NCBI RefSeq assembly: GCF_000015945.1
Contig: NC_009033.1
Location: 1,170,001 to 1,202,000, forward strand
Length of the DNA: 32,000 nucleotides
DNA from: Staphylothermus marinus F1
GTDB lineage: Archaea > Thermoproteota > Thermoprotei_A > Sulfolobales > Desulfurococcaceae
Direction: 5' to 3'
A model generated the notes under the pieces. That model was not told where the DNA came from, did not search any database, and saw nothing but the letters and a program-made list of their open reading frames with translations. Each line of letters opens with the position of its first letter. The first letter of the stretch is position 1. Of this stretch, positions 2,908 through 27,200 are shown one piece after another. The position numbers and the translations under genes were made by a program.

Positions 2908-3768
2908 GTGATATGTTTGCAGAAATATTATTCTTATAGAGAAGTTATTGATGCTAAAATATATGATAGTACGGGTCTATATTTTGGAGATTTATGTGGT
3001 TTCTCAATAAATGAGAAACCCTTGTTAAAAGCATGTCTTAAATTCAATGTTGGCGATATGGTACCGGATATTAATAGGCTTAAGGGGTTACTGGAAGAAA
3101 GGGGTCTAGAGATCCCGCAGGATCTTACGCTGGAAGAGCTAGTATTGACAGCTAGGAATGAGGGTTTAGAGATTCCTATGAAGAAAGTTGTTTCGAAAGT
3201 AGAGTTTGTAAAGGCTTTTATCGACTTGGATAATGTGTTGTTGATTGATGTGGTTTATAGAAGGGTTTATAGAGGTAATTCGAGAATAGCTGTTATCCTC
3301 CTTAAATCTCCTCGAGAAGCAAAATATAGGGGTCTCCCCCTCCCAATAAATAATCCCTACATTGAATTAATAGATAAGACGATAGGTAAATTAGTGGTTA
3401 GCACTAGTAACGGGATAATAGGATATGTTAGTGAAGTAGTTTTTTCGCCTGGAAAAGTTGGGTTGAGAATTGAATCCGAGAATTATAGGAGTGGAGTAAT
3501 ATTGTGGAATAATTTCTTATCCATTCTTGAAACAAGAGGATTTAGTGAATTAGGAAATTTATTAAGAAACAATATTGGAGAACATGAAAGACTTGATCTC
3601 CACTTGTATGGATACATATATCATTTACTAGAAACATATAAGGCTCCAAGTCAAGTATTTGAACTGCTTAATTCTAATCTAGAATTTGAAGAATTACTTG
3701 TAGAGAAATACCAGGATATTGAATGGGATAATATATTGAAAATTGGTGATATAATCATAGCTAAATAA
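2908..3768 (+). CDS. Hypothetical protein with two PRC-barrel-like segments, immediately upstream of MoxR
   Basis: 286-aa ORF. The segments EVIDAKIYDSTGLYFGDLCGFSINEKPLLKACL and IGKLVVSTSNGIIGYVSEVVFSPGKVGLRIE resemble the PRC-barrel pattern. There is an internal RGLEIPQ / EGLEIPM duplication. The start could be TTG 2917, 5 nt after GGTGAT. Confidence 0.6.
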   Translation: MICLQKYYSYREVIDAKIYDSTGLYFGDLCGFSINEKPLLKACLKFNVGDMVPDINRLKGLLEERGLEIPQDLTLEELVLTARNEGLEIPMKKVVSKVEFVKAFIDLDNVLLIDVVYRRVYRGNSRIAVILLKSPREAKYRGLPLPINNPYIELIDKTIGKLVVSTSNGIIGYVSEVVFSPGKVGLRIESENYRSGVILWNNFLSILETRGFSELGNLLRNNIGEHERLDLHLYGYIYHLLETYKAPSQVFELLNSNLEFEELLVEKYQDIEWDNILKIGDIIIAK

Positions 3769-3780
3769 GAGGTTTAAACA

Positions 3781-4824
3781 ATGGATATAGATGAGATAAG
3801 TGAAAAAATAAATATGGTTATAAAGGAGATTCATAAAGCAATAATCGGCTATGATTATGAATTGAAGCTTCTTCTAGCATCACTCCTATCCGATGGACAT
3901 GTATTATTAGAAGGTGTTCCAGGCATTGCTAAAACAACTATTGCAAGAGCACTGGTTAGAGTATTAGGTCTTGAGGAGAGAAGGAAATACTTCATAGAGA
4001 ATATACCATTTACAGGATTTTCACGTATACAATTCACACCTGATCTTATGCCAAGCGATATAACGGGTTCTCTAATATTTAACCCTGTAACCAGAGAATT
4101 TGAGCCAAGACTTGGCCCTATATTTTCATATATCGTATTAGCTGACGAGATAAACCGTGCAACACCTAGAACACAATCAGCAATGCTTCAAGCAATGCAG
4201 GAGAGAGAAGTAACCATAGGTGATAAAACATATAAGCTTGAATACAAGGATAAAGGTAAGTTCTTCTTTGTAATAGCCACCGAGAACCCGATCGAGCAAG
4301 AAGGAACATATCCATTACCAGAGGCACAACTTGACCGCTTCATGATGAGAATAATTATGGGTTATCCAAAAAGTTTAGAGGAAGAAAAGAACATCTATAA
4401 ATTACATGCATATAGAATTGTTGAGCCAGTAGAGGATCTAGAAAAAATAGTTACACCGGACTGGGTGGTTGAAGCACAAAAAACAATAAGTAAGGAAATC
4501 ATGGTTTCCGACACCATGCTAGACTATATTGCACGGATAATTAGAGCAACTAGGCCCGAGATACTAAAAAGTATTAAGAAATACTTTGAATTAGGAGCAA
4601 GCCCCAGAGCAGGTATAATGCTAGTAAAAGTATCCAAAGCACTAGCAGCTATTAGAGGTAGTGATAAAGTAGAATATGTTGACCTTGAAAAAGCTTTATT
4701 CCCAGTTCTTAACCACAGAGTTATACCAAACATCGATCTTGTAATAGAGTATGGTGGAGACTTCGAGGCTAGGATGAGAGTGATAAGGGAAGGACTAAAG
4801 CATGCGGTCGAAGCTGTTACGTAG
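3781..4824 (+). CDS. MoxR-like AAA+ ATPase
   Basis: Walker A LLEGVPGIAKTT, the motif RIQFTPDLMPSDITG, and Walker B/sensor VLADEINRATPRTQSAMLQAMQEREVTI. AAGAGGT lies 8 nt upstream of the ATG. Confidence 0.9.
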   Translation: MDIDEISEKINMVIKEIHKAIIGYDYELKLLLASLLSDGHVLLEGVPGIAKTTIARALVRVLGLEERRKYFIENIPFTGFSRIQFTPDLMPSDITGSLIFNPVTREFEPRLGPIFSYIVLADEINRATPRTQSAMLQAMQEREVTIGDKTYKLEYKDKGKFFFVIATENPIEQEGTYPLPEAQLDRFMMRIIMGYPKSLEEEKNIYKLHAYRIVEPVEDLEKIVTPDWVVEAQKTISKEIMVSDTMLDYIARIIRATRPEILKSIKKYFELGASPRAGIMLVKVSKALAAIRGSDKVEYVDLEKALFPVLNHRVIPNIDLVIEYGGDFEARMRVIREGLKHAVEAVT

Positions 4825-4846: not shown

Positions 4847-5707
4847 ATGATAATATTTGATAACATAACTATGCAGGATCTTCTAGGTAGATCATATAAG
4901 TTATTCTTCCACATACCAACCCCAAGCATCACACTCATTATTACCCCCGCACTTTTCAATAAAACTCTTCTAGCAAACTATATTTTAGGAAATAAGAAAC
5001 CTTTTATCGGAAATATTGTTTCAAGAATAAAAATACAGGGAGTGAAAGGATTATTCATTCCAGAGCTAGCGCAAGGAAAGTCATTAATTTTAGACGAGAT
5101 ATTAACTATTGATGAAAAAGATGATACATTATATTCTGAACTACTTAACTTACTTAGACAATACGGGTACAAATTAGACAATAATCCTTTGATCATAAAG
5201 AATATTCCTAAGCCCCTATTATACTTAATTAGTACAATCTATGTTCTGAGGAAATCCGGGAACTTAACAGTACTTATAGAGCCTTTTAAAGAGTTGGATG
5301 AAATGCTTGGGTCAAGACTAGTCATGGAGATCTATGAGAAGAGAAGTAAGGGAAATACAATAGTGATTATTTCTTCCAACAAGAGTCTCATTGATAATAT
5401 AAACTATGAGCACTTAGTAATTATAAGGAGAGATGGCAAGATCTTCGAGACTAGTACTGGAGCTATCACCCTAAAAAATATTTTAAAAGAAACCATTCCA
5501 TTAGAAATAATTGCTGAAAAGAATAGCTTATCTGAACTGTTATCATTAAAGTGTTTAAAGGGAATAATTACTCTTAATAAGAACATATTTTATGTTTTTA
5601 TAGAAAAGTCTTTATATAGAACATGTTTATATCACCTAGTTAATCTACAACGGAAAAGAATAATTAGGAAAATGAGAGTTGTTAAACAGAGTTTTATTGA
5701 GGAATGA
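4847..5707 (+). CDS. ABC-type (ABC-2/DrrA-like) ATPase homolog with eroded catalytic motifs
   Basis: Collinear with ABC ATPases. P-loop position ITPALFNKT (versus GPNGAGKT), Q-loop LAQ, signature position NIPKPL (versus LSGGQ), Walker B position LTVLIEPFKELD (versus LLILDEPTxGLD), switch position IISSN (versus H). The C-terminal tail ends QSFIEE. Confidence 0.65.
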   Translation: MIIFDNITMQDLLGRSYKLFFHIPTPSITLIITPALFNKTLLANYILGNKKPFIGNIVSRIKIQGVKGLFIPELAQGKSLILDEILTIDEKDDTLYSELLNLLRQYGYKLDNNPLIIKNIPKPLLYLISTIYVLRKSGNLTVLIEPFKELDEMLGSRLVMEIYEKRSKGNTIVIISSNKSLIDNINYEHLVIIRRDGKIFETSTGAITLKNILKETIPLEIIAEKNSLSELLSLKCLKGIITLNKNIFYVFIEKSLYRTCLYHLVNLQRKRIIRKMRVVKQSFIEE

Positions 5708-5713
5708 TCATAT

Positions 5714-6313
5714 TTGAGGATTAATGGTGGTCAACTGATTTTATATATATTAGCGTCCCTTATTGGGGGCATGCTAGCTTTTATTCCTTTCACATATATT
5801 GTTCCACAAATGTTCTTTGGAGAATTAATTTTTCTCCACATAGTATTCATTCTAGTAATATATATTGAGTTATCTAGGATAATCGAGTGGTTTGAGGGAT
5901 TAGATAAGCTTGTCTATATTAATTCTGATGAGTCTAGCAGGATGAAAATGTTCAAGAAAGTCATTTCTATAATTACTGATAACTTATTAGTTTTTTCATT
6001 AGTTATACTTATCCCATGGATAATTATTCGTGGACAGTATCTTTCAAACTATATTTTCATAGGCTATTTCCTATCAATTTTTATATTAATAAATACTTTA
6101 TCAACACTTATCATGTTGATTAATATGGCGTTTATAAAAGATAAGTTAATTTCTATTTTACTGATATTTTCCACAGAGATCGTAATTATTTTGTCTATGC
6201 TTAATAGGTTAAATCAGATATTTAATTATGATCTCCTCTATCCAGTATCTTTACTCATATCTTCGCTGACTTTATTATTTATTGTCTACTATGGGTGGAA
6301 TAAATGGATCTGA
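5714..6313 (+). CDS. Polytopic membrane protein (about 6 hydrophobic segments), possible permease partner of the ABC-like protein
   Basis: TTG start 9 nt after GAGGAA and 6 nt after the previous stop. There are six long hydrophobic runs, for example LILYILASLIGGMLAFIPF and YIFIGYFLSIFILINTLSTLIMLI. Confidence 0.6.
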   Translation: MRINGGQLILYILASLIGGMLAFIPFTYIVPQMFFGELIFLHIVFILVIYIELSRIIEWFEGLDKLVYINSDESSRMKMFKKVISIITDNLLVFSLVILIPWIIIRGQYLSNYIFIGYFLSIFILINTLSTLIMLINMAFIKDKLISILLIFSTEIVIILSMLNRLNQIFNYDLLYPVSLLISSLTLLFIVYYGWNKWI

Positions 6314-7167
6314 AGCATTTATCGTTAATATTTTTTATTATCGCCTTAATTTGGTCGTTACTCTATCTCTTTGGCTCTCATGGATTTGTTTTCTATTCTT
6401 CGGAACTAACCGCTGTGGACAGGGGATATAATATTGTTTATTTAAATGATTATTCTCCAATACGTATATACATATATAATATTTATCAACTACACGGTGG
6501 AGGCAATATTAGAAACGATATAGTAATTAATTATCATGTTAAAAATCTAACTTATGCCTCATTACCTATAGTTAATATAAGGATCAAGTATTTCCTCAGC
6601 AATTATACTCCAATAGAACCCCCCTCTACTATTCTAACATATATGGATTATGTATCTCTATATGAGGGAAAAGTTAATCCTGTTCTAGTAGGGATGGGTT
6701 TAGAGGATAAACATATAGTTTTAGAAAATGTTCGGTCAAAATATCTTGTTGTAGTAGTTGTTCTCAGTATTAGACAGGATATAATAGTTGATTTATCAAA
6801 ATATGTGCCTCCACTAACATATTATCCCAGTCCCCCGCCTCAGCCAGACATATTTGCATACATTGTGAAGAGATCCTTTAATAATTCATACTATGAAACA
6901 ATGCTTTTGTATCTAGCTAAGAAAATATATGAAAATACTGGATCTCTAAGTGTTTTTCAGGAACACGTATTAACAAATAAAAACATTAGATTATCAAGCA
7001 TTCTTATTGTATGGATATTATCAATAACTTTTATTGAAGCATATGATTACAAATTCGTATTTAAACTGTTTAGAGAGTTGATTTATAAAGCAGTGATCTC
7101 AGGATCATATTTGCGAAGAAAACTAAGAAGGTTGCTAAAATATACGGTTCGACAACATAGTTCTTAA
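6304..7167 (+). CDS. Bitopic membrane protein with a large ectodomain, hypothetical
   Basis: ATG overlaps the upstream gene by 10 nt and follows GGGTGGA. N-terminal TM LSLIFFIIALIWSLLYLF, Y/I/V/N-rich middle, proline patch YYPSPPPQPD, second TM LSSILIVWILSITFI, and a basic tail. Confidence 0.55.
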   Translation: MDLKHLSLIFFIIALIWSLLYLFGSHGFVFYSSELTAVDRGYNIVYLNDYSPIRIYIYNIYQLHGGGNIRNDIVINYHVKNLTYASLPIVNIRIKYFLSNYTPIEPPSTILTYMDYVSLYEGKVNPVLVGMGLEDKHIVLENVRSKYLVVVVVLSIRQDIIVDLSKYVPPLTYYPSPPPQPDIFAYIVKRSFNNSYYETMLLYLAKKIYENTGSLSVFQEHVLTNKNIRLSSILIVWILSITFIEAYDYKFVFKLFRELIYKAVISGSYLRRKLRRLLKYTVRQHSS

Positions 7168-8068
7168 CATCGATTTTATAGTTTATATTACTTGTCAAAA
7201 TATAGTTTCCAGCCTTTGATACTGTTTTCTCAGCGAGTTTTTCGAATATATTGATTAGATTATTTGTTTGTTTTACATTATAGAATTGACCCTTCGTGAT
7301 ATTTGCTATTTCTCGTAGTCTCTGCTTAGCCATTATGTTCTCGTAGATATTCATTCCCGGTGTTTCGATGAAGATAGGGTATATTGTTATATTGTATCTA
7401 GCACATTTATATACTACTTCTCTATATAAGGGGGTGTCTTGAGCAAAAGGTAGGCCGTCAGTTACAAATATTATTGTTGGAGATAAGTTGAATTCGGCAA
7501 AGGGGACTAACCATTCATATGCTATTTCTAGTGGCTTACTATATATTGTTCCGCCGAAAGCTTTTATTTCTCCAAGCTTCTTATATAGAAGCTCCTGATC
7601 ACTTGTTGGGGGTATAGCTATTCTTACGTGGTCATTAAACGTTATTAGGCCAATTAATACATAGTCTATTGTTTGATCAATAAATTTTTTTACAGCGTTA
7701 ACTGCTGTTATGATTTTATCGCCTTTCATGCTGCCAGATGTATCTAAAACAATTACTACAGGGGGTTTTCTCTGCAAGCTAATCTTGGCTTCAAGTGTTT
7801 GTGTGGTCTTCACATATTTGGGTATTATAGTGTATGGTAGTGTTAGCGAAAACATTATTAATACAATTACTGTGGTGGCTAATGCTATGTTCAAATACCA
7901 TTTGATACTATGTTGTTTTCTAATATAGGACGAAATATACTGTGTTAACGGATGATTAAAAGAATAAATTTTGCCTAGAACCCTTCTTCTTCCCCATCTT
8001 AATAATACATACATAGCGAACAGGATTAACGGTATGATATAAATTATTATAGGGTATTCAAGCATCAA
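7070..8068 (-). CDS. TM-anchored von Willebrand factor A protein (BatA/BatB-like)
   Basis: BatA_N-like N-terminus LEYPIIIYIIPLILFAMYVLLRWGRRR. MIDAS VVIVLDTSGSMKG ... GGT ... FVTDG. C-terminal hydrophobic segment YILATFLVFFANMIL. Confidence 0.8.
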   Translation of the reverse strand: MMLEYPIIIYIIPLILFAMYVLLRWGRRRVLGKIYSFNHPLTQYISSYIRKQHSIKWYLNIALATTVIVLIMFSLTLPYTIIPKYVKTTQTLEAKISLQRKPPVVIVLDTSGSMKGDKIITAVNAVKKFIDQTIDYVLIGLITFNDHVRIAIPPTSDQELLYKKLGEIKAFGGTIYSKPLEIAYEWLVPFAEFNLSPTIIFVTDGLPFAQDTPLYREVVYKCARYNITIYPIFIETPGMNIYENIMAKQRLREIANITKGQFYNVKQTNNLINIFEKLAEKTVSKAGNYILTSNINYKIDVKNYVVEPYILATFLVFFANMILRSLLYKSTL

Positions 8069-8071
8069 TGT

Positions 8072-9013
8072 CTAGTACCCCTCAATACGTGATGCTAGAA
8101 ATAAAACTAAGCTCGCAACTAACAAGTAAATTGTTGGATATGGATAGACTACTTCTTTCGAAACCTTCACTTCTAATAGTTTCTTAGATATAAATGCTTC
8201 CAACCTCATCTGTCTAGCAGCATCTTCCGTCAACTTATTCAGTAATTTCTCAGTGAACTGATTAATGTTTATAACATATATATTAGAAGCCGTAAGCTCT
8301 TCGACTAATTGGTCGGCTCGTTTATCTAATCCTATTCTAACAAATAATACTGGATATCCAGACTTGTTTATTGAAACTATTTCATCATATGGGTCTCCGC
8401 CCTCATTATATGCTCCATCACTAACTATAACTATTATAGCTGGATACTGTGATGCGGTAACATATGAGTATGCATAAGCTAGTGCCGCGCTTAGATCAGA
8501 ATATCTTTTGTCGGGGGAAAGCTCCAATAATTTGGGGTGACAAAACGTTATGTTTCCTAGACAAATTTTTCTAGGATATTCTGAGAATCCAATGATCAAT
8601 AATTTATCTTTAGGTGATAAATAATTCATATACCTATAGGTAAAATTCAAAGCTCTAACAAATCTTGTAATGTTGGTTCCATCAGTATACTGCATGCTTT
8701 TTGATTCATCTATTAATAAAACGTGTAATGCTGTTATATTATACATTACTCTCTTGATCTCTGTTTCTTCAGGGTTTCCATGTACTGTAAACTGTATTGT
8801 TTGAACAGTAACTGGAAGCGTTGATGCTAGGAGTAATAATATTATTGATGCTATTTTGGAGGCTTGAATTATATGCCATAATATGTTATCTCTCTGATTT
8901 AATAGTTTTAGAAGGGTTCTTCTCCTAGAATAAACATATATGTATAAGAGTGTCAGTATTGGTATAATAATTAACATAACATTGGTCATTTCTGGATGCA
9001 ATAGTTTAATCAT
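8072..9013 (-). CDS. TM-anchored von Willebrand factor A protein (BatA/BatB-like), second copy
   Basis: N-terminus MIKLLHPEMTNVMLIIIPILTLLYIYVYSRRR. MIDAS LLIDESKSMQ ... VIVSDGAYNEGGDP. C-terminal TM IYLLVASLVLFLA. ATG 9013 is preferred because GGGAG lies 8 nt upstream; the track start is GTG 9040. Confidence 0.8.
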   Translation of the reverse strand: MIKLLHPEMTNVMLIIIPILTLLYIYVYSRRRTLLKLLNQRDNILWHIIQASKIASIILLLLASTLPVTVQTIQFTVHGNPEETEIKRVMYNITALHVLLIDESKSMQYTDGTNITRFVRALNFTYRYMNYLSPKDKLLIIGFSEYPRKICLGNITFCHPKLLELSPDKRYSDLSAALAYAYSYVTASQYPAIIVIVSDGAYNEGGDPYDEIVSINKSGYPVLFVRIGLDKRADQLVEELTASNIYVININQFTEKLLNKLTEDAARQMRLEAFISKKLLEVKVSKEVVYPYPTIYLLVASLVLFLASRIEGY

Positions 9014-9866
9014 CTTCCATACTCCCAGAGTATCCTCCACTTATTCCTCCAGGATTCTCGGTATTTGTCATATTGGTTTTCTGTTTCTTAACAATTTCTC
9101 CCATTGAAAGCTTTGTTAGGAACATTGATATTTGCCTAGCGAATGGCTTTAACTTCTCCATATCAACTTGTTTCGTAATGGATTCTGCAAGTTTTAATAA
9201 GGTTAGATTTGTATTGTTGTTTTCAATGTTTTCTATATTAGATGATAGGATTTCCATTAATTTTATGTATTCTAGGATAGTATTGAGAGTATCATTGATA
9301 ACCATGATCGAGTAATTTATTGTAGTATTGTGATCGTCGAGCAATATGCCTTTTTCTCTTACATATTTTAAAATTTTCAGTGATTCGTTAAGTTCATGCA
9401 CAATATTGTAGAGACGTAGTTTCATATCGTAATATATGTTTAGGGATTTCTTTATGTTTAAGTTGCTGAGTTCATCAAGGCTTTTCTCCATACCGGCCCA
9501 TATAATAGGTAGATCCATTGTAACATTAAATAGTTTCCTAGAAACAATTGTTATATTTTCATATGTAATTACAGTTACTAATTCTCTATACGGTGTTCCC
9601 GGAGTATTCAGTACTCTTGTTTTCTCTTCTTTAATGTATTTATGAAGCTTTAATAGATCAGCAGGATCTACATCATAGCTAGGATTCTTATATTGAATAT
9701 GGGAACTTGTCTTATTCAAGTAAGATATTGATTCTTGATAAGCACGATCTAGGCTATAATTTGAGCTGGAAATACTTGTTTTGATAAGCATGCTGTAAAA
9801 TATAAAACCAAGTATTATAGCTACTATTATAGTGGCTAAGATGCTTGTTCTATTTATTTTAAACAT
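9006..9866 (-). CDS. N-terminally anchored, sequon-rich helical surface protein, hypothetical; first gene of the vWA operon
   Basis: TM ILATIIVAIILGFIFYSMLI, at least 11 N-x-S/T sequons in the ectodomain, and a G/S-rich acidic tail NPGGISGGYSGSMEDD. ATG 9866 follows GAGAGGA; the track start is TTG 9884. Confidence 0.55.
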   Translation of the reverse strand: MFKINRTSILATIIVAIILGFIFYSMLIKTSISSSNYSLDRAYQESISYLNKTSSHIQYKNPSYDVDPADLLKLHKYIKEEKTRVLNTPGTPYRELVTVITYENITIVSRKLFNVTMDLPIIWAGMEKSLDELSNLNIKKSLNIYYDMKLRLYNIVHELNESLKILKYVREKGILLDDHNTTINYSIMVINDTLNTILEYIKLMEILSSNIENIENNNTNLTLLKLAESITKQVDMEKLKPFARQISMFLTKLSMGEIVKKQKTNMTNTENPGGISGGYSGSMEDD

Positions 9867-10091
9867 TCGTCCTAGTCCTCTCAAATAGACCTGTCTAAGA
9901 TATGGGTTATATTAAGATACTAATAACACTAACTCATTTACGTATCGTAGAATATTGTTAAGTTGTTATATAGTAGTTATAAAGTACAACGTTTTATCAC
10001 AAATAATGCTACATTATAGAACTTTATTCGGACATACATGTGCCTGTAAGAGGGTAAAAACGGGATAATAGTTATACTTGTGAAAGTGAGG

Positions 10092-14496: not shown

Positions 14497-16065
14497 GTGG
14501 TATTTTTGAGTATTAGAAATAATGATTCAATTGAAAAGTATACACCTCTCATTTTAGTAAAGTCTCAAACGGGGCTAAGGACGCTTAGCGAGGAAGAAGT
14601 TATAGGGTATATAATGTTTCAAGCTGAAACAAATAGGAAAAAACCAGGATTCTTTAAAAGAAAGGGTGAACATATAAGGCTTGTATCTTTACTATATTAT
14701 CCATTCATAGTTAAGAGTTACAGGGAGAGAATGGCCTTAATAATCGATCCAGTTAAGAAATCTAGTATAGAATTTGAATATGATTCAATTAATAAAGAAG
14801 TTATAAATAAAGAGTTAGAGTCGTTAAAAGATCTCACAGGCAAGGAATTTCTGGATCAAATGGTTAAGCTTGAAAAAATAGTGGAAAGCATTGTTTCGGG
14901 TAAGGAATATATTGATAAAAGAAAATATGTGATCGAATCAATTGTTAACGATGCAATAATGATAAAAGATCTAAGAATATTTATTGAAAACACTGTTAAC
15001 TATGAAATACCAGGTGGAAAAATAGAATATGAAAAAATCAATATAGATGAGATAATAGAGAAAGTTCAAAAAATTCTTGAAGAAACCCATTCTATACTAA
15101 CCTATATAAATGATTTCATAAAAAGACTCGACGGCTACGTTGATAAATGGAAAGAAAATATCGAGCTAGTATTTTCTGAGAAAATGAAGGAAATAGATGT
15201 AAAGATCGAAGAAACCAAATTAGAGGTGCAGAAAAACATTAATTTATTACGAAAGAAGCTTGAGGAAGAAATAAATGTTATAAAAGAGAGACATAAACCA
15301 ACAATTGAAACTATAGAGAAAAGGATCGATGAGATCAAGAGTGAAATTAAAACGATCGAGGAAGAAATAGAAAAAGCAAAACAATATGGTAAAGATACAA
15401 GTGATTTAAAGAAGAAATTGAATGATCTCAAGAAAACATTAAAGGATCTTGAAGAAGAGTTGAGAGAAGCTAATAAAAGAATGGAGGATGAAATTGAATC
15501 TGTTCAAAAACGATACAAGGAAATGATTGAGAGTGAAAACGAGAAAATAAAAAGACTGTATAATGAGAGAGAGAAGTTGCGTCTAGAGCTCGAAGCTCTG
15601 GAAAAAGAAGCTAATACAAGATACGATTCTATTAGGAAGAATCTGATGAAGTATAGAGATAAAATTATGGAAATTGAGAAAAAAATCTTAGGTATATCCG
15701 TTCTACTACCAACTAGCGGAGAAGGAAAATACTTGGTCCCATTAGCAGTTATAATGTACGGTAAAAACAGCGAGACAAGATACATGACAATAACACCTTT
15801 AATGTTTGAACATACAGGAAGAATAGCGTCGAGAATTAGAATTTACAGTGTAGAGTCAATAAACAAACACTTAGCCTGGATAATCAACATTCTTGAACAA
15901 CCACGCATTAGGGCTCAATTAGATGAAAACAATCTATTCAGGATCGTAGCGCTTGAGCGGATAGAAATAGGCTTATCTAGACTTTCAGATCTCGGTATAC
16001 TTAGTAGGGGAGAAATTAGAAAAATCATAAAGAATTTGAAGGATCAAATAGAAATGGTTGTTTAA
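14497..16065 (+). CDS. Large coiled-coil protein, hypothetical
   Basis: 522 aa: an N-terminal domain of about 100 aa, about 300 aa of E/K/I-rich heptad-like sequence, and a C-terminal domain of about 120 aa. The start could be TTG 14506, 5 nt after AGGTGG. Confidence 0.65.
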   Translation: MVFLSIRNNDSIEKYTPLILVKSQTGLRTLSEEEVIGYIMFQAETNRKKPGFFKRKGEHIRLVSLLYYPFIVKSYRERMALIIDPVKKSSIEFEYDSINKEVINKELESLKDLTGKEFLDQMVKLEKIVESIVSGKEYIDKRKYVIESIVNDAIMIKDLRIFIENTVNYEIPGGKIEYEKINIDEIIEKVQKILEETHSILTYINDFIKRLDGYVDKWKENIELVFSEKMKEIDVKIEETKLEVQKNINLLRKKLEEEINVIKERHKPTIETIEKRIDEIKSEIKTIEEEIEKAKQYGKDTSDLKKKLNDLKKTLKDLEEELREANKRMEDEIESVQKRYKEMIESENEKIKRLYNEREKLRLELEALEKEANTRYDSIRKNLMKYRDKIMEIEKKILGISVLLPTSGEGKYLVPLAVIMYGKNSETRYMTITPLMFEHTGRIASRIRIYSVESINKHLAWIINILEQPRIRAQLDENNLFRIVALERIEIGLSRLSDLGILSRGEIRKIIKNLKDQIEMVV

Positions 16066-19503: not shown

Positions 19504-19575
19504 GGTGGATAGTTCATTTTTTAAAGGAAATAACTATAAGTGAATAGTAGAGTGAAAGTTTGGGTGTTGTACTCA

Positions 19576-20829
19576 ATGATCTACGATGATAAACCTAGTA
19601 CATGGAAGATTATTGAGGAAGAACTAAACAAGCCGACTATTTTTAAGAGCAGAGAGAGCCTGACACCTGAATATATTCCTGATAATCTACCCCACCGTGA
19701 AAAAGAAATTAAAGCATTGGTTTCAGCATTTAAACATTTAATTACTAGTCCAGGTAGCTTCTCGCAGAGAGTGTTAATTGTTGGCAGTGTAGGAACTGGA
19801 AAAACCGTGACAGCCAGGGTTTTCGGAAGAGACTTTACAAGAGCCGCTAAGATTAAAGGATACAATATCAGGTATGTACATATAAACTGTCACCGTAACC
19901 GTACACTTTATAATGTTGTAACCGAAATAGCTAGGCAACTAGAAATACCTTTACCATCAAGAGGATTATCTGTTAAAGAAATGTATGATGCTATCCTAGG
20001 ATATCTTGATGAAAGTGATACTTATGCTATAGTTACTCTAGACGAATTCCATTACTTTGCAAGTATTGCGGGCAGTGATGCAGTATACTTTATCGTTAGA
20101 ACATATGATGATATAAATGCTAGTATAAAAAGACTAAACTTTATCTTTATATCTCTTGATACATCTAAGCTATCATTACTAGATAGCACTACTGAAAGCT
20201 ACTTATTAAGACACATGATTAAGCTTAAACCATATACTTCAAGTGAATTATTTGATATTTTAAAATATAGAGCCTCTCAAGCATTCTATGAAGGAATAGT
20301 TGACGATGAGATTCTAAGATTTATAGCTGATTATGAAGGTAGTGATCGCGGTGGCGGAGGAAACGCTAGACACGCGATCGAAATATTGTTGTTGGCTGGT
20401 GATATAGCTGAGAGTGAAGGAGCAGATAAAATACAGTTAGATCATGTACGTAAAGCTATTATGAAGACCTCTAGAGAAATTATAAACATATCAGAATCCA
20501 TCCTATATAGCCCCGTCCACGAACTAATAATTCTATGGGCGATTATAAGGCTTCTCCGTAGGACTGGGAGACCATTTGTTAAAATGGGCGAGGTGGAGAA
20601 GGAGTATGAAGTGCTCTGCGAAGTTCTAGGCGAACAACCACGTAGACATACACAGATCTATGAATACATTATGAATCTTAAGAAAGCCGGGGTTATAGAT
20701 GCTAGAACTAGTGGTAAGGGTTTACGGGGTAGAACAACGCTGATAAGCATTCATTATGGACCCCTTGATCTATTTGAGAAGCATGTTGAAGACCTAATAT
20801 ATAGGAGGCTTGGTGTTAGTAAGAGATGA
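19576..20829 (+). CDS. cdc6: Orc1/Cdc6 replication initiator
   Basis: LPHREKEI, Walker A GSVGTGKT, Walker B VTLDEFHY, sensor GGGGNARHAIEIL, and a C-terminal winged helix. ATG 19576 is preferred because GGGTG lies 9 nt upstream; the track start is GTG 19540. Confidence 0.9.
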   Translation: MIYDDKPSTWKIIEEELNKPTIFKSRESLTPEYIPDNLPHREKEIKALVSAFKHLITSPGSFSQRVLIVGSVGTGKTVTARVFGRDFTRAAKIKGYNIRYVHINCHRNRTLYNVVTEIARQLEIPLPSRGLSVKEMYDAILGYLDESDTYAIVTLDEFHYFASIAGSDAVYFIVRTYDDINASIKRLNFIFISLDTSKLSLLDSTTESYLLRHMIKLKPYTSSELFDILKYRASQAFYEGIVDDEILRFIADYEGSDRGGGGNARHAIEILLLAGDIAESEGADKIQLDHVRKAIMKTSREIINISESILYSPVHELIILWAIIRLLRRTGRPFVKMGEVEKEYEVLCEVLGEQPRRHTQIYEYIMNLKKAGVIDARTSGKGLRGRTTLISIHYGPLDLFEKHVEDLIYRRLGVSKR

Positions 20830-21032: not shown

Positions 21033-22304
21033 TTATCTCTTAAGTCTTCTATAATAAGCTAATACCTCACTACTCTTAGGTCCTGCAAGCCATTTAATCA
21101 TTTCCTCCGTTAATCCATAACCCAATGCGATTTTAGCCGCATATTTGGGAGCATGTGTAAATATTATTTTCAGGAAAGGTATAACATCTCTTTTAATAGT
21201 TGCTCTACTTGTTAATAGTCTAGGAGCCAGTGTCATTGCTATGCCTTCTCTAACTTCTCTACTTCTCTTAGTTTGTGCTAATAATTGTAATCTTTTTGGA
21301 GAACGAAATGCTTTCCACTTATACCTATATATTTTCCTAGCAAATGCTACTCCAGGCCCCATCATATCGAAAACATAGCTTAAAAGATCCCATGAACCAC
21401 TCTTCCGAATCCTACCCATGTATACGTCTGCTCTACTAAGTGCTTCATATGCTCTCCAAATCTCTTCTGGATCATCGTAATAGGTTGGTATGTGCTCGTT
21501 TATCCAGATCATCATTGTTTCATAATCTATGTTTGCCTGAGATATTGCAGATTTAGCTTGAAATATATATCTTGCATTAAACATTTTCTGTAATGCTTCG
21601 AATGGTGCATATTCTCTAGTCCTATACGCCGATAATTCCCTTACCCAGTTAAGAGTTACTCTGCCAAATCCTTCAGCTATTGCTTGTAGATCATTTATTG
21701 CACTCCTAAGATCTCCTTCGCTTCTCCGAGCTATTTCTCTTAAAGCTGCATCTTCGCATTCTAGTTTTTCGAGTTGACATATTCTTTTTAGAACTATTAT
21801 TACATCTCTCTCACTTAGTCTCTTAAAAGCAATCATTAATGAAGCGTCTCTGAGAGGCTTAAGTTTTTGATCCCAGGGGTTATTAGCCGTCATAACTACA
21901 GGGTAACGTGTTATTTCTAGTAAGTGTAGTATAGCATCTATAGCTCCTCTATCAGCTGTTCCGCTTATGCCATCGACCTCGTCCAATAATATGATTTTTC
22001 CACGGGCGAAAAGGCTTCTCATAAAAGCAGCTGTTTTAGCTATTCTCTCAATATCTTGTCTTCTCCTAAAATCACTAGCATTCATCTCTACTATTTCTAA
22101 GCCATACTCGTTAGCTGCTGCTTCGACTAGACTAGTTTTACCACAACCCGCCGGACCATATAGTAGAGCGGCTTTCTTCGATGGTTTGCCTTTAAGCCAT
22201 GATTCAAGCCATTGGATAAATTGTTTTTTAGCGGAATCCTGATTAACTACATCTGCGATTTTCTTTGGCCTATACTTTATTATCCATGGAATTCTACGGG
22301 GCAT
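21033..22304 (-). CDS. rfcL: Replication factor C large subunit
   Basis: [14 protein letters not shown], Walker [12 protein letters not shown], Walker B ILLDEVDG. It lies 20 nt downstream of rfcS. Confidence 0.9.
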
Positions 22305-22324
22305 TCCGGATACCTTTGTTTAGT

Positions 22325-23314
22325 TTATGGTTTTAGTTTCTTTCCAAGGAATGCTAGCCTTGCTAGGAAAGCATTTAGCTGTATTTCATCATCAGCTCCT
22401 TCAACTAGTCTAAACTGTATTTCTCCTGCTAAGTCTGCTATAATTATTTTGAATTCATCTGGTATCTTGATATCTGTGCTGAATATTTCTCTATGAACCT
22501 GTTTAATAACGTCGACCCCGCTTAATCCATAATTGATCATTAGTTCTCTCAGCTTCTCGCGTGCATCGTTAAAGTTGCCTGCTAATGCTAACTGTATCAT
22601 TTGTCTTATTTCTCTGGGATGAGCTAATCCAACTACTTTATAGACGCTATCAACTGTTACCTTACCAAGTGCTGCAGCTGCTTGTAATATGTTGATTGCT
22701 CTCCTCATATCTCCCTCTGATAAATCATGTATTGCTTCCAGAGCTTCTTCATCTATCTCAACTTTCTCCTGTTCAGCTATCCATTTAAGCCTTGATATAA
22801 CATCTTCTTTTTTCAGCGGTGCAAACCTGAATACTGCGCATCGACTCTGGATTGGCTCAATTATTTTGCTTGGATAGTTAGCTATTAATATGAATCTTGT
22901 TGTTGCAGTATACATTTCCATAAGTCTACGAAGAGCTTGTTGTGCGTCTGCAGTCATATTGTCTGCTTCATCCAACAGGACTATTTTGAATGGAATATTA
23001 GCTGCAACCCTTGTTCTAGCGAATTCTTTTACCTTGCTACGTATAACATCTATCCCTCTCTCATCGCTAGCGTTCAGCTCCAACATGTATTGCCTATAGT
23101 TTTCTCCAAATAAGTCATGGGCTAAACAATGAGCAGCTGTAGTTTTACCAGTACCTGGAGGACCGGCGAATAGTAGGTGAGGCATATTTCTTTCCTTAAC
23201 AAACTGTTTGAGACGAGATACTATTTCTTCTTGATCAACTATTTCATCCAATGTTTTAGGCCTATACTTTTCAGCCCATAATAACTCAGCTATAACTTCT
23301 CGAGAGCTACTCAT
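22325..23314 (-). CDS. rfcS: Replication factor C small subunit
   Basis: WAEKYRPKTLDEIV, GPPGTGKTT, LLDEADNMT and QSRC. ATG 23314 is preferred because AGGTG lies upstream; the track start is GTG 23326. Confidence 0.92.
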   Translation of the reverse strand: MSSSREVIAELLWAEKYRPKTLDEIVDQEEIVSRLKQFVKERNMPHLLFAGPPGTGKTTAAHCLAHDLFGENYRQYMLELNASDERGIDVIRSKVKEFARTRVAANIPFKIVLLDEADNMTADAQQALRRLMEMYTATTRFILIANYPSKIIEPIQSRCAVFRFAPLKKEDVISRLKWIAEQEKVEIDEEALEAIHDLSEGDMRRAINILQAAAALGKVTVDSVYKVVGLAHPREIRQMIQLALAGNFNDAREKLRELMINYGLSGVDVIKQVHREIFSTDIKIPDEFKIIIADLAGEIQFRLVEGADDEIQLNAFLARLAFLGKKLKP

Positions 23315-23345
23315 ATGTTGACACACCTAACAAATATCTATGTCT

Positions 23346-23441: not shown

Positions 23442-24017
23442 TTGACAGGTATTCATACGGTTTTGGTTGATAAAATAATAGAGTTTATTATGAGAGATTT
23501 TATGGAGGAGGAGGTACGAGTAGAAGTTATAGGCGGTAATTTCAGGGTTTTAACACATGAGGGATTTATTGATCTAGTTAGAGGAGCCGAGTATAACTTG
23601 CCTAGATGGGTTGCTTACGAGTTATTGAAAAATGGGATCGTTAATATTAAGAGTGATGATATAAGTGTTGAGAAACTATCTAGTATAGCATACAACGAAG
23701 AATCAACCATTGGCCGTCCACAATTCGTAAAGGTTCCAAGATACTTCTACTTATTAATCAAAAAAGAAATAGAGGAAATACGTGAGAAGCTTAATAAAAA
23801 CGCTGACATCAACTTGTTACAAGAGCTTAAAACATATGAGGATCTAATCTATACAATTGGTAAGACACGTTTAAAGAAAATATTATATATTCTCTTATTA
23901 CCCCAAATCCCCCAGGATATTCTTGATAAACTAAGCGAGGAAGAAAAAACATTATTAAACCTGTTAAAGAGCTCTCTCGACGAGTGGATGAAGAGTCTGA
24001 GAATAGAAAAACATTAG
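23442..24017 (+). CDS. gins23: GINS subunit (Gins23-like)
   Basis: Sits directly upstream of mcm, as in Sulfolobus. GINS-like motifs NLPRWVAYELLKNG, TRLKKILYILL and LSEEEKTLLNLL. TTG start 7 nt after GAGGGGTGAT. Confidence 0.7.
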   Translation: MTGIHTVLVDKIIEFIMRDFMEEEVRVEVIGGNFRVLTHEGFIDLVRGAEYNLPRWVAYELLKNGIVNIKSDDISVEKLSSIAYNEESTIGRPQFVKVPRYFYLLIKKEIEEIREKLNKNADINLLQELKTYEDLIYTIGKTRLKKILYILLLPQIPQDILDKLSEEEKTLLNLLKSSLDEWMKSLRIEKH

Positions 24018-24056: not shown

Positions 24057-27000
24057 TTGACATATACATTGGAAAAGGAAAAAACAGAACCAGATCTTGT
24101 AACAAGGTTTAAAAGGTTTCTATGGGATTTCAGAGATCGAAGAACAGGCATGTTTAAATACCGTGAAAGAATAAGCCATATGGCTCTAATGGGTCAGAGA
24201 AGCCTATTAATTGATTTCAACGACATAACATTGTTCGATAGAGGACTAGCACATATTATTGAAAACAATCCTGACACAGCCATAGAAGCAGCTAGTATAG
24301 CGATTAAGGAGCTAATGAGGAGAGAAAACCCAGAATATGCTGAGTCCGTAGATAAGTTTTATCCAAGATTCCGTAACCCAAGCAAAGTGTTAAGGATCAG
24401 GGAATTAACAAGCGAGTATATAGGGAAATTTGTCGCTGTAGAAGGTATATTGACTAGGCTGACAAGAGTTGAAGCTAGACTGGTTAAGGCTGTTTTTAAA
24501 CATGCAGAATGTGGAGCAGAGTTTGAATGGCCTGAAGAAGGAGAGATGGGGGAGAGAATAGAGAAGCCATCATACTGCCCTATATGTGGGAAAACAGGTA
24601 AGTTCCAGTTATTATTGAATAAGTCTAGATTTATTGATTGGCAAAAAATAGTTGTACAAGAAAAACCAGAAGAAATCCCTCCTGGCCAGATCCCAAGAAG
24701 TATTGAGGTTGTTCTTACCGGTGATCTAGTGGATTCAGCGAGACCTGGTGATAGAGTCTTAGTAACAGGGATACTACGAGTTATGCCCACAAGCTCTGTG
24801 CAGAGAGGTATTGGTAAATCCGTTTTTGGATTCTATCTCGAAGCAAACTATGTTGATGTTCAACAGAAAGTATTGGAGGAAATAGAGATAACGCGTGAGG
24901 ATGAGGACAAAATAAAGGAGTTGGCAAGAGATCCATGGATCAGGGAGAAAATTATAGCAAGCATTGCACCAGCCATTTATGGTCATTGGAACATTAAGGA
25001 AGCAATAGCATTGTTGCTTTTCGGAGGAGTACCTAAATTATTACCTGATGGAACAAGAATACGTGGAGACATACATATATTATTAGTAGGAGACCCAGGT
25101 ACTGCTAAATCCCAAATGCTACAATATACTGCAAAAATCGCCCCCCGCGGAATATATACTAGCGGGAAAGGATCGACAGCTGCTGGTTTAACAGCAAGTG
25201 TTCTCAGAGATAAAGCAACAGGAGAATATTATCTCGAAGCTGGAGCATTGGTATTAGCTGATGGAGGAGTTGCATGTATAGATGAGATAGATAAAATGAG
25301 AGAAGAAGATCGAAGCGCAATACATGAAGCATTAGAACAGCAAAGTTATCATAAAGATTTCAAAATAATGTTGGCAGATGGTAGGAAGGTTAGGATTGGA
25401 GATTTAGTAGATGAGCTGATAGGTAAGAATAGGGAAAAAGTCATTAAGGGTAAGGATACCGAGATACTTTTCGTAGATGACTTATTCCTTCTCTCATACA
25501 ATATGCGTTCAGGAGAACAAGTGCTTGTAAAAGCAGATAGAGTAAGTAGGCATAAAGCACCTGATCAATTTATAAAGTTAAGATTTAGTAATGGAGCAGA
25601 AATAATCGTTACACCAGAACATCCAGTGCTGATAATTAATAATGGAAAAATCAAAACAGTTAGAGCTGATACAGTTCGTAAAGGCACTCTAACCATAGGT
25701 GTGCTAGGTCATAAAATTATTAAAGAAGTAAATGAAGATGACATAATCAATAATATTAGGAGAAAGATCGTATTAGATAAAGAACTTCCATATATTCATG
25801 CCAAAAACATTTCTGAAGCCGTTGAAATGCGTGATCAATTAATGAGTATAGATATACCAACCTTCATTGTTAAACATAAAAACGAGATAAGACTTTATCC
25901 ATCTGGTCCATGTTCTCTAAGAAGACTTCTATTAATGCATGGAGTTGAAGAAGTTGTTTTCAGCGATGAATTACTATATGAAATCATGAACTGCCATTTA
26001 TACCCAGCAACATGGTACGAGCTATTATACTCAATGGGATTAACCAAGATAGCTAAGGAACTAAATGTCTACGACTTTGAAATATTAGCAGGTATTATCA
26101 AAAAAGTTGAGAAAGAAGTAATTATGTTATCCCAGGTTCTCGGATTGAGAAATGAAACACAAACAGAACTGTTACATCTTAAATCACGTAGAGAACTTCT
26201 CATAAGACTTAAGGATAAACTAGACATGTTAAGGAAAAGATTAAAGGATCTTGAAGAAGCATTAGGTAAAGACGCTGTCATTAGAATGATTACTGATGTA
26301 GAAGTAATTAAGAATACGGATTCGGACTGGGTTTATGATATAACTATTGAACCCTACCACTTATTTGTCTCGGACGGTCTCATACTACATAATACTGTTA
26401 GTATTGCCAAAGCAGGCATCGTTGCCAGACTAAATGCTAGAGCATCTGTTCTCGCAGCTGGTAATCCGAAACTTGGAAGATACGATCACTCATTACCAGT
26501 AAGTAAAAACATTGATCTCCCACCACCTATTCTATCAAGATTTGACCTAATATTTATAGTTGAAGATATACCGGAGAAAACCAAAGATACCCTACTAGCT
26601 AAGCATATACTAGATATACATACAGACTATGAGAAAGCAAAACCATTAATCGATACTCAGCTCCTCAAAAAATACATTAGTTATGCAAGAAGATATATTA
26701 GGCCAAAACTAACACAAGAAGCTAAAAAATTGCTTCTAGACTTCTATGTAAACATGAGGCTTTCAGGTGTAAAAGCTAGTAAGGAAGGCCCACCAGCCAT
26801 AGCTATGACACCTAGACAATTAGAAGCATTAATCAGATTATCAGAAGCTCACGCAAAAATGGCTTTAAAAACTAAAGCAACAATTGAGGATGCTGAAGAA
26901 GCTATTCGTTTAATGTATTATAGTTTGAGAAAAGTAGGTTACGATGTTAAATCCGGCAGATTAGATATCGACCTAGTAGAACTAGGTGTTTCTAGAAGTA

Positions 27001-27200
27001 AGCAGGTTAAAATGAAGGAATTCATGAAATTCATTGATAAAGTATTCGAGGAATACGATGAAATAGAATATAAGGAATTATATAATCTAGCTAAAGAGAA
27101 AGGATTTGATAAAGAATTCGTTATTGAAATGATAAGACGGCTTAAAAAAGACGGACTAGTATATGAGCCGAGACCAGGTGTTTTATCAAAAGTATATTGA
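24057..27200 (+). CDS. mcm: MCM replicative helicase precursor containing one intein
   Basis: Zn motif CGAEFEWP..CPICG, Walker A LLVGDPGTAKSQ, Walker B ACIDEIDKM, arginine finger SRFDLIF, and a C-terminal wHTH. TTG start 7 nt after GAGGAGGA. The protein is 697 aa once the insert is removed. Confidence 0.95.
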   Translation: MTYTLEKEKTEPDLVTRFKRFLWDFRDRRTGMFKYRERISHMALMGQRSLLIDFNDITLFDRGLAHIIENNPDTAIEAASIAIKELMRRENPEYAESVDKFYPRFRNPSKVLRIRELTSEYIGKFVAVEGILTRLTRVEARLVKAVFKHAECGAEFEWPEEGEMGERIEKPSYCPICGKTGKFQLLLNKSRFIDWQKIVVQEKPEEIPPGQIPRSIEVVLTGDLVDSARPGDRVLVTGILRVMPTSSVQRGIGKSVFGFYLEANYVDVQQKVLEEIEITREDEDKIKELARDPWIREKIIASIAPAIYGHWNIKEAIALLLFGGVPKLLPDGTRIRGDIHILLVGDPGTAKSQMLQYTAKIAPRGIYTSGKGSTAAGLTASVLRDKATGEYYLEAGALVLADGGVACIDEIDKMREEDRSAIHEALEQQSYHKDFKIMLADGRKVRIGDLVDELIGKNREKVIKGKDTEILFVDDLFLLSYNMRSGEQVLVKADRVSRHKAPDQFIKLRFSNGAEIIVTPEHPVLIINNGKIKTVRADTVRKGTLTIGVLGHKIIKEVNEDDIINNIRRKIVLDKELPYIHAKNISEAVEMRDQLMSIDIPTFIVKHKNEIRLYPSGPCSLRRLLLMHGVEEVVFSDELLYEIMNCHLYPATWYELLYSMGLTKIAKELNVYDFEILAGIIKKVEKEVIMLSQVLGLRNETQTELLHLKSRRELLIRLKDKLDMLRKRLKDLEEALGKDAVIRMITDVEVIKNTDSDWVYDITIEPYHLFVSDGLILHNTVSIAKAGIVARLNARASVLAAGNPKLGRYDHSLPVSKNIDLPPPILSRFDLIFIVEDIPEKTKDTLLAKHILDIHTDYEKAKPLIDTQLLKKYISYARRYIRPKLTQEAKKLLLDFYVNMRLSGVKASKEGPPAIAMTPRQLEALIRLSEAHAKMALKTKATIEDAEEAIRLMYYSLRKVGYDVKSGRLDIDLVELGVSRSKQVKMKEFMKFIDKVFEEYDEIEYKELYNLAKEKGFDKEFVIEMIRRLKKDGLVYEPRPGVLSKVY
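25344..26393 (+). mobile_element. Intein (350 aa) inserted in MCM between ...IHEALEQQ and TVSIAKAG...
   Basis: Ser1 with block A SYHKDFKIMLADGRKVRIGDLV, block B TPEHPVL, blocks F/G DWVYDITIEPYHLFVSDGLILHN followed by Thr+1. The insert is in frame, 1050 nt. Confidence 0.9.

Follow-up and report, generated by a model that had tools for sequence, protein, structure and literature searches.

The window analysed here is a stretch of 32,000 nucleotides (nt) from Staphylothermus marinus F1 (contig NC_009033.1, positions 1,170,001 to 1,202,000 of the forward strand), and its main subject is an open reading frame (ORF) of 286 residues on the + strand (4847-5707, ATG start). It encodes a degenerate ATP-binding cassette (ABC) protein, composed of an ABC-2-type nucleotide-binding domain (NBD) and a C-terminal alpha/beta domain. 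This pseudo-NBD is a true homolog of ABC NBDs whose similarity lies below curated thresholds, and its gene has a fixed place, with translational coupling, in a nine-gene cluster that is specific to the Desulfurococcaceae and built around a MoxR ATPase, a DUF58 protein and two VWA proteins. We consider it probable that the protein is a dead NBD, degenerate from a transporter ATPase that was native to the cluster, and that it now works as a non-hydrolysing cytoplasmic scaffold or coupling subunit docked on a membrane protein with six transmembrane (TM) segments.

The homology was decided by profiles; single-sequence searches alone are indecisive. A Pfam scan of the pseudo-NBD gave no match, even at E<=1, and the gathering threshold of PF00005 is not reached; PF13732 did not match the C-terminal domain. 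The NCBIfam ABC models align with residues 100-214 at E=0.002-0.14 (12-17 bits, against cut-offs of >200), and a single-sequence phmmer search of the PDB returned Rv1218c at E=0.056, all PDB matches being weak. These faint similarities are all collinear with ABC NBDs. A family profile built from four sequences and run against 1.84 billion proteins recovered 11 family representatives, followed by weaker matches with E-values from 3e-8 to 1e-3; ten proteins of this tail were scanned, and all carry PF00005 (ABC_tran), one of them with a DrrA1-3_C domain besides. When the alignment of 13 family sequences is compared by hhalign with ten canonical ABC proteins, the probability is 99.5% (E=1.9e-22, 204 columns), and a canonical ABC profile scores the pseudo-NBD at 59 bits. 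Among canonical proteins, the nearest to the pseudo-NBD are ABC-2 NBDs that have ABC-2 permeases as partners or carry a DrrA1-3_C domain, and the string 'EPFxxLD' of the Walker B/D-loop region is common to them and to the pseudo-NBD. P0015 proved to be the ATPase of a common importer of the ZnuC type.

The predicted structure points the same way. The AlphaFold2 (AF2) model computed from the 13-sequence alignment has a predicted local distance difference test score (pLDDT) of 83 and a predicted template modelling score (pTM) of 0.68; it replaced an earlier model from four sequences (pLDDT 52), which was set aside. Foldseek aligns the model with 1141 PDB chains at E<=1e-3 (best E=5.9e-11), and the best 50 of these 1141 are ABC NBDs without exception. 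The model contains the NBD fold, with its RecA-like core and its helical subdomain, the latter (residues ~60-125) being the least conserved and least confidently modelled section of the protein. The alignments that span the full length are with NosF, PmtC and TM_1403, which are ABC-2-type ATPases with a C-terminal domain. In the pseudo-NBD this extra domain of ABC-2/DrrA-type NBDs is recognised by AF2, by Foldseek and by an hhalign alignment that covers residues 19-286; it is predicted as a beta-alpha-beta-beta-alpha-beta domain (5474-5704, +; residues ~210-286) with a pLDDT of 81-92 over most of its length. An earlier sequence-only reading of this DNA had described the ORF as an ABC-2/DrrA-type NBD homolog with a retained fold, and it was borne out on homology by hhalign and Foldseek and, as far as a model can tell, on the fold.

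Motif columns were placed by hhalign against canonical ABC proteins, and the states of the family were counted in the 13 representatives. The Walker A relic (4943-4966, +; residues 33-40) reads TPALFNKT and is aligned to GPNGAGKT (canonical GxxGxGK[ST]). Glycine is lost from positions 33 and 38 throughout the family (0/13 at each), Pro34 is present in 13/13 and position 38 is Asp or Asn in 11/13. The Walker A lysine, Lys39, is found in 9/13 and is replaced by Gln, Ile, Glu or Gly in the other four, while Ser or Thr occupies position 40 in only two members. The signature, or C-loop, relic (5204-5218, +; residues 120-124) is IPKPL, aligned to LSxGx (canonical LSGGQ); all 13 proteins share the pattern [IL]-P-x-x-x, in which Pro121 is invariant and no Gly occurs (0/13). 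The Walker B and D-loop region (5264-5299, +; residues 140-151) is LTVLIEPFKELD, in which the Asp has become Ile144, and Glu145, Pro146, Leu150 and Asp151 are retained. Across the family, position 144 is Ile in 11 members, Val in one and Glu in one (Asp 0/13), the catalytic Glu at position 145 is Glu in ten and Asp in three, Pro146 and Leu150 are present in 13/13 and Asp151 in 11/13. At the H-loop position (5378-5380, +) Asn178 replaces the switch His, and this column holds Asn in 11/13, Thr in 2/13 and His in none.

These placements are those proposed from the letters alone for the P-loop (with Lys-Thr kept), the signature, the Walker B pair (I144-E145 at D-E), the switch His and the persisting D-loop (L150-D151). 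The exception is the Q-loop, whose Gln had been thought to persist: the residue aligned by hhalign is E73 in 'FIPE' and not Gln76 in 'LAQGK'. The canonical relatives carry Glu at the Q-loop position too (YMPE, YLPE, VLHE), which makes E73 the state ancestral to this subfamily. The description of the protein as having every motif eroded is right for most of them and slightly overstated, given that the catalytic Glu, the D-loop and the residue at the Q-loop position remain, as the same text partly acknowledged.

Because the P-loop glycines, the Mg-coordinating Asp, the signature and the switch His are gone, and an acidic or amide residue stands beside the Lys, canonical ATP binding, sandwich dimerisation and hydrolysis are very unlikely. 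Judged by the established ABC mechanism, in which the roles of the motifs are as reviewed in PMC7756269, the pseudo-NBD has most likely lost nucleotide binding and hydrolysis and would be catalytically dead. The loss of catalytic chemistry put forward in the sequence-only reading is thus strongly implied by the motif states of the 13 members.

The degeneracy is conserved and does not look like random decay. The reading frames of the 13 representatives are intact (279-290 residues, 22-84% identity), and the comparison with the ortholog of Staphylothermus hellenicus (84% identity) gives a ratio of nonsynonymous to synonymous substitution rates (dN/dS) of 0.137. Neighbouring and housekeeping genes span 0.07-0.27: MoxR has 0.068, the VWA genes have 0.08, the 6-TM gene has 0.26, and the housekeeping genes on the flanks lie at 0.08-0.15. 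A value of 0.14 indicates purifying selection, and the gene is therefore not a pseudogene. The replacement residues P34, D/N38, P121, I144 and N178 are conserved and under selection themselves. The family is rare: in a set of roughly 15 billion proteins it makes up about a dozen clusters. Its named members all belong to the Desulfurococcaceae, and their annotations are hypothetical or automatic ABC labels.

The genomic setting carries the second part of the argument. On the - strand at 1936-2823 lies a DUF58 protein (Pfam PF01882, E=6e-13), divergently transcribed and conserved in position. The MoxR operon, on the + strand, starts with a cytoplasmic marker protein of unassigned family (2908-3768; about 282-286 residues) and continues with the AAA+ ATPase MoxR (3781-4824; AAA_3, MRP-type; Pfam PF07726, E=8e-55), whose Walker A GVPGIAKT and Walker B DEINR are intact and which is the sole intact ATPase in the cluster. 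The pseudo-NBD follows, and after it come a 6-TM membrane protein of 199 residues (5714-6313, +), predicted to be N-in/C-in with a basic cytoplasmic TM2-TM3 loop of 28 residues, and a bitopic protein of 287 residues (6304-7167, +), with an N-terminal TM segment, an ectodomain with a conserved YVPPxxYYPxPPP motif, a C-terminal TM segment and a basic tail. A convergent operon on the - strand begins with an N-terminally anchored protein of unassigned family (9006-9884, -; about 286-292 residues) and encodes two membrane-anchored VWA proteins, each matched by Pfam VWA_2 and VWA, with metal-ion-dependent adhesion sites (MIDAS) intact as DESKS (8072-9040, -) and DTSGS (7070-8068, -). The position of the ORF between MoxR and a 6-TM protein, as given by the sequence-only reading, is correct according to the ORFs, Pfam and the predicted topology.

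The synteny is strict. The pseudo-NBD gene stands directly 3' of MoxR in 15/15 distinct contigs (16 loci including the window, of which L008 and L025 are one contig), a gene for a multi-TM protein of ~200 residues comes next wherever the contig reaches that far, and the entire nine-gene order recurs wherever contigs are long enough. In the window, 22 nt separate MoxR from the pseudo-NBD and 6 nt separate the pseudo-NBD from the 6-TM gene, which overlaps the bitopic gene by 10 nt; in L001 and L003 the pseudo-NBD and 6-TM genes overlap by 4-14 nt. A GGTG core resembling a Shine-Dalgarno sequence lies 7-10 nt 5' of the pseudo-NBD ATG, in a window with a G+C content of ~33%.

The origin of the pseudo-NBD is illuminated by paralogous clusters that hold canonical counterparts of it, recovered with the marker protein as probe (35-37% identity). 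The cluster L020, from the Desulfurococcales metagenome-assembled genome (MAG) ex4484_58, has the order DUF58 (-), marker, MoxR, an ABC ATPase of 303 residues, a multi-TM protein of 272 residues, a bitopic protein of 279 residues and two VWA proteins (-). Its ABC ATPase is fully canonical, with GPNGSGKTT, LSRGY, LLLLDEPTANLD (Walker B LLLLDEP) and ATH, and scores 90.5 bits with PF00005. In an organism of higher G+C content, L027 bears on one strand DUF58, a canonical ABC (GPNGSGKT), a TM protein of 260 residues and a bitopic protein of 263 residues, beside the marker-MoxR pair found in L026. Compared by hhalign with these slot-mate ABCs of L020 and L027, the pseudo-NBD family gives a probability of 96% (E=3.1e-9, 263 columns, residues 19-286), and the alignment takes in the whole C-terminal domain. 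Because L020 and L027 carry versions with an intact ABC, the triad of NBD, multi-TM and bitopic proteins is a module native to MoxR/DUF58/VWA clusters of this class. This suggests that the Staphylothermus pseudo-NBD is a degenerate derivative of the transporter ATPase native to the cluster, which decayed in place and was not recruited when already degenerate. The earlier proposal of a degenerate transporter recruited into the MoxR/VWA machine consequently stands as regards the transporter module and yields, as regards recruitment, to a native component that later decayed.

Clusters of both types occur together in two MAGs, L015 with L020 in one and L017 with L019 in the other. The ortholog-type marker-MoxR locus of L015, which is in the same MAG as L020, lies on a contig that ends inside MoxR before the ABC slot, and the two cluster types probably co-exist in that one genome. 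The paralog-type clusters L019 and L026/L027 are rearranged, each differently: in L019 the marker gene is separated from a MoxR fragment by a PIN-domain gene and a small ORF on the - strand, and the DUF58 gene is flanked by an unrelated sugar ABC importer, while in L026 an unrelated beta-propeller gene follows MoxR and the ABC triad stands behind DUF58 instead. The MoxR of L020 (9850-10873) is split into two overlapping ORFs of 141 and 219 residues, through either a frameshift of the MAG assembly or a real disruption.

Two partly degenerate ABC_tran proteins from the tail of the profile search were considered as intermediates of the degeneration and rejected. P0024 (L028, 8001-8684) keeps Walker A, has the signature IPCGM and lacks the H-loop His; it sits in an unrelated and otherwise ordinary bacterial TetR/MFP/ABC-2 efflux operon. 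P0026 (L029, 99-857) also keeps Walker A, reads ILDNP, with Asn for the catalytic Glu, has the signature LEPSL and lacks the His; it came without genomic context.

The neighbours of the pseudo-NBD, marker protein and membrane proteins alike, belong to families that the searches do not connect with known ones. The marker protein, which is tightly linked to MoxR and marks the paralogous canonical-ABC clusters as well, has no Pfam, NCBIfam or PDB match; with 77 invariant columns in six orthologs and a dN/dS of 0.078, it is second only to MoxR in conservation within the cluster. Its start is likely the TTG at 2917, judged against S. hellenicus. It is not a second, hidden NBD (hhalign probability <1%), and its PDB matches to EcfA1 at E~0.9 are noise. 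The 6-TM protein has no Pfam or PDB sequence match, and its hidden Markov model (HMM) matches neither the L020 permease nor the partner of P0014, an ABC-2 NBD that accompanies a classic ABC-2 permease. With the permeases of L020 and L027, hhalign picks a collinear region after TM2 at a probability of 0.2%, which is not significant (enrichment of the permease profile yielded only three sequences), so that the idea of a recognisable ABC-2 permease finds no support in Pfam, PDB, HMM or hhalign comparisons. Nor is the TM2-TM3 loop the best-conserved part of the protein (0.44, against 0.41-0.49). The bitopic protein has no Pfam family or PDB profile match, six orthologs having been searched for DUF4350/GldG at E<=10, and neither a GldG/DUF4350-like identity nor kinship with the bitopic proteins of the canonical clusters is supported. 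Its gene overlaps the convergent VWA gene at the 3' end by 98-122 nt in all degenerate-type clusters examined (window 7070-7167; L001, L003, L006, L007), with both reading frames conserved throughout; the same overlap in L020 is just 4 nt. The anchored protein at 9006-9884 (-), whose place at the head of the VWA operon is conserved, ends in an invariant acidic GGYSGSxEDD tail. TPR families of the BatC/BatE kind were not matched by Pfam in any of the nine cluster proteins, and a search with PADLOC for a defence-system identity gave nothing significant.

Taken together, these observations can be accommodated in a model in which the pseudo-NBD, having kept a complete NBD fold and its C-terminal domain and most likely lost the ATP-sandwich dimer and hydrolysis, would remain the cytoplasmic subunit of a membrane module that is itself a relic. 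Its contact site on the N-in/C-in 6-TM protein would be the basic cytoplasmic loop between TM2 and TM3, and it could link the membrane and ectodomain parts of the system (the bitopic and VWA/MIDAS proteins) to the cytoplasmic MoxR and DUF58; ATP would then drive a single motor, MoxR, whose Walker motifs are intact. A role as a scaffold, in association with the 6-TM protein, is the most likely one.

Several points weigh against this model. The 6-TM and bitopic proteins have no significant similarity to their counterparts in the canonical clusters (the hhalign probability of 0.2% given above), and the equivalence of the modules between cluster types is drawn from gene position and membrane topology only. 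The slot-mate ABCs score 29 bits, against 73 bits for P0014, a comparison biased by the fact that top matches of the P0014 type are the extreme tail of a search of 1.8 billion sequences; direct descent of the pseudo-NBD from the slot-mate lineage is likely rather than proven. Finally, the Staphylothermus proteins still have Lys39-Thr40 and Glu145, and weak or non-canonical nucleotide binding by the Staphylothermus ortholog would be compatible with these residues.

The notion that the pseudo-NBD is tied to the membrane may itself be disputed. It could be a soluble accessory of MoxR that works away from the membrane protein, as a cytoplasmic adaptor, a substrate recruiter or a regulator of the MoxR hexamer or of DUF58, much as VWA partners target MoxR. 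The gene is, after all, always immediately 3' of MoxR, permease homology of the 6-TM protein is undetectable, and the helical subdomain, which normally contacts the coupling helix of the transmembrane domain, is the part of the protein least conserved and least confidently modelled. However, coupling to the 6-TM gene is even tighter than to MoxR (the 6-nt gap, and the overlaps in L001 and L003), and the canonical ABC gene of L027 is grouped with those for the TM and bitopic proteins, apart from MoxR, which links the NBD to the two membrane proteins rather than to MoxR. A soluble accessory thus seems unlikely, while still deserving consideration.

The scaffold model can also be extended in a bolder direction, which we regard as distinctly unlikely. 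The pseudo-NBD, the 6-TM and the bitopic proteins might form an ATP-independent module of ABC type, in which the MoxR hexamer and DUF58 would act on a dimer of dead NBDs and so drive or gate movements that reach the extracellular VWA/MIDAS proteins. If this were true, it would amount to an 'energy-source swap' within one machine, and the paralogous cluster with the canonical ABC would represent the ancestral, self-powered state.

A further proposal, quite improbable in our judgement, is that the remodelled pocket (Lys39/Thr40 and Glu145) is a cryptic sensor of ATP, ADP or another phosphorylated ligand, and that the protein is a nucleotide-gated regulator. The retention of K39-T40, E145 and the D-loop in the window protein is consistent with this, and so is an aromatic residue at the A-loop position in 8/13 members. 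The family as a whole argues otherwise: Lys39 is replaced in four of the 13, Ser or Thr stands at position 40 in only two, glycines 33 and 38 are lost throughout, the Asp or Asn before the Lys position in 11/13 should repel phosphate, and the Mg-coordinating Walker B Asp is absent from all 13.

It is very improbable that the pseudo-NBD joins a canonical NBD from another locus, such as a paralogous cluster, in an asymmetric heterodimer and so gives a transporter with one active site. Heterodimeric ABC transporters commonly have degenerate sites (PMC7756269), and the two MAGs with both cluster types would offer such a partner. The pseudo-NBD, however, is degenerate on both its faces, that of Walker A and that of the signature, so neither composite site would be canonical, while known degenerate sites retain the P-loop and bind ATP (PMC7756269); moreover, no canonical NBD partner is encoded in the cluster or in the rest of the window. 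A decaying pseudogene, or a mis-annotated ORF with a chance resemblance to ABC proteins, might be argued from the missing Pfam match and the weak single-sequence PDB matches, and it is refuted by the dN/dS of 0.137, the 13 intact full-length representatives with their conserved replacement residues, the hhalign E-value of 1.9e-22 and the confident ABC NBD fold.

ABC proteins in which an ATP site is partly degenerate are well known, and the family described here could serve as a natural test of what an NBD contributes beyond ATP chemistry. An ABC-type module of three genes (NBD, multi-TM and bitopic) is integral to one class of archaeal MoxR/DUF58/VWA clusters, in active and dead versions, and MoxR-VWA systems, for which few substrates are known, gain a concrete membrane-spanning candidate component. 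The immediate impact is modest, as the family is small and confined to hyperthermophiles of the Desulfurococcaceae.

Elsewhere in the window, the ORF at 24057-27200 (+) encodes an MCM helicase of 1047 residues with an intein inside its P-loop domain (Intein_splicing, residues 437-779). It lies in a replication-gene neighbourhood (with 23442-24017, 19540-20829 and 21033-23326) that holds GINS (Sld5-like), Cdc6/Orc1 and the large and small subunits of RFC. A protein of 522 residues (14497-16065, +) is matched only by coiled-coil or apolipoprotein-like helical-repeat models, all below thresholds.

It remains to compare the pseudo-NBD and its cluster with known systems. A literature search found no description of the family or of ABC NBDs or modules in MoxR/VWA clusters, and no stand-alone NBD with such losses on both dimer faces that is nevertheless selected beside a membrane partner. 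The closest relatives in structure are the ABC-2/DrrA-type (type V exporter) ATPases, such as NosF (7osf, 7o0y), PmtC (6xji), TM_1403 (4yer) and Rv1218c (8k1m), which have the same NBD fold and C-terminal alpha/beta domain and share the 'EPFxxLD' string and the Glu at the Q-loop position. Unlike them, the pseudo-NBD is without a functional Walker A, signature, Walker B Asp and H-loop His, falls below the PF00005 threshold and has a shorter membrane partner (199 residues) that is not recognisable as an ABC-2 permease.

The heterodimeric ABC exporters (TAP1/2, CFTR, ABCC1, TM287/288 and, as an extreme, Pdr5) likewise keep the fold despite substitutions at the H-loop His and the signature, to which Pdr5 adds one at the Walker A Lys (PMC7756269). 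In these exporters the degenerate site is one of two, still binds ATP and is paired with a canonical site, and the hallmark loss is that of the catalytic Glu (PMC7756269). The pseudo-NBD, in contrast, stands alone, as neither the Pfam scan nor the hhalign comparison of the marker protein found a second NBD in the cluster, and it shows nearly the reverse pattern: it retains the Glu but has lost, on both faces, the glycines of the P-loop, the signature, the Asp of Walker B and the His.

As for the rest of the cluster, it resembles the Bat/MRP-type MoxR operons (MoxR-DUF58-VWA-VWA-TPR, as in the Bacteroides aerotolerance operon), whose make-up is described in PMC11834572, in its AAA_3 MoxR, its DUF58 protein and its two anchored VWA proteins with intact MIDAS. 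It differs from them in being archaeal, in its divergent and convergent operons and in the absence of detected TPR proteins, and it adds to the operons described four lineage-specific proteins and an ABC-derived module.

The other system to be compared is the archaeal arCOG01314 (DUF4350, GldG-like)/vWA/MoxR system (Makarova et al., 2015; PMC5898192). That account names no ABC NBD component, intact or degenerate, and the six bitopic orthologs of the present cluster gave no DUF4350/GldG signal. The two systems are nevertheless alike in joining an archaeal MoxR (COG0714) and vWA proteins to membrane and ectodomain proteins. The arCOG01314 system is predicted to act in secretion or membrane remodelling, and one of its components is related to GldG, an accessory subunit of an ABC-2 transporter (PMC5898192); this GldG-like component has the same topology as the bitopic protein of the window, with an N-terminal signal or TM segment and a C-terminal TM segment.

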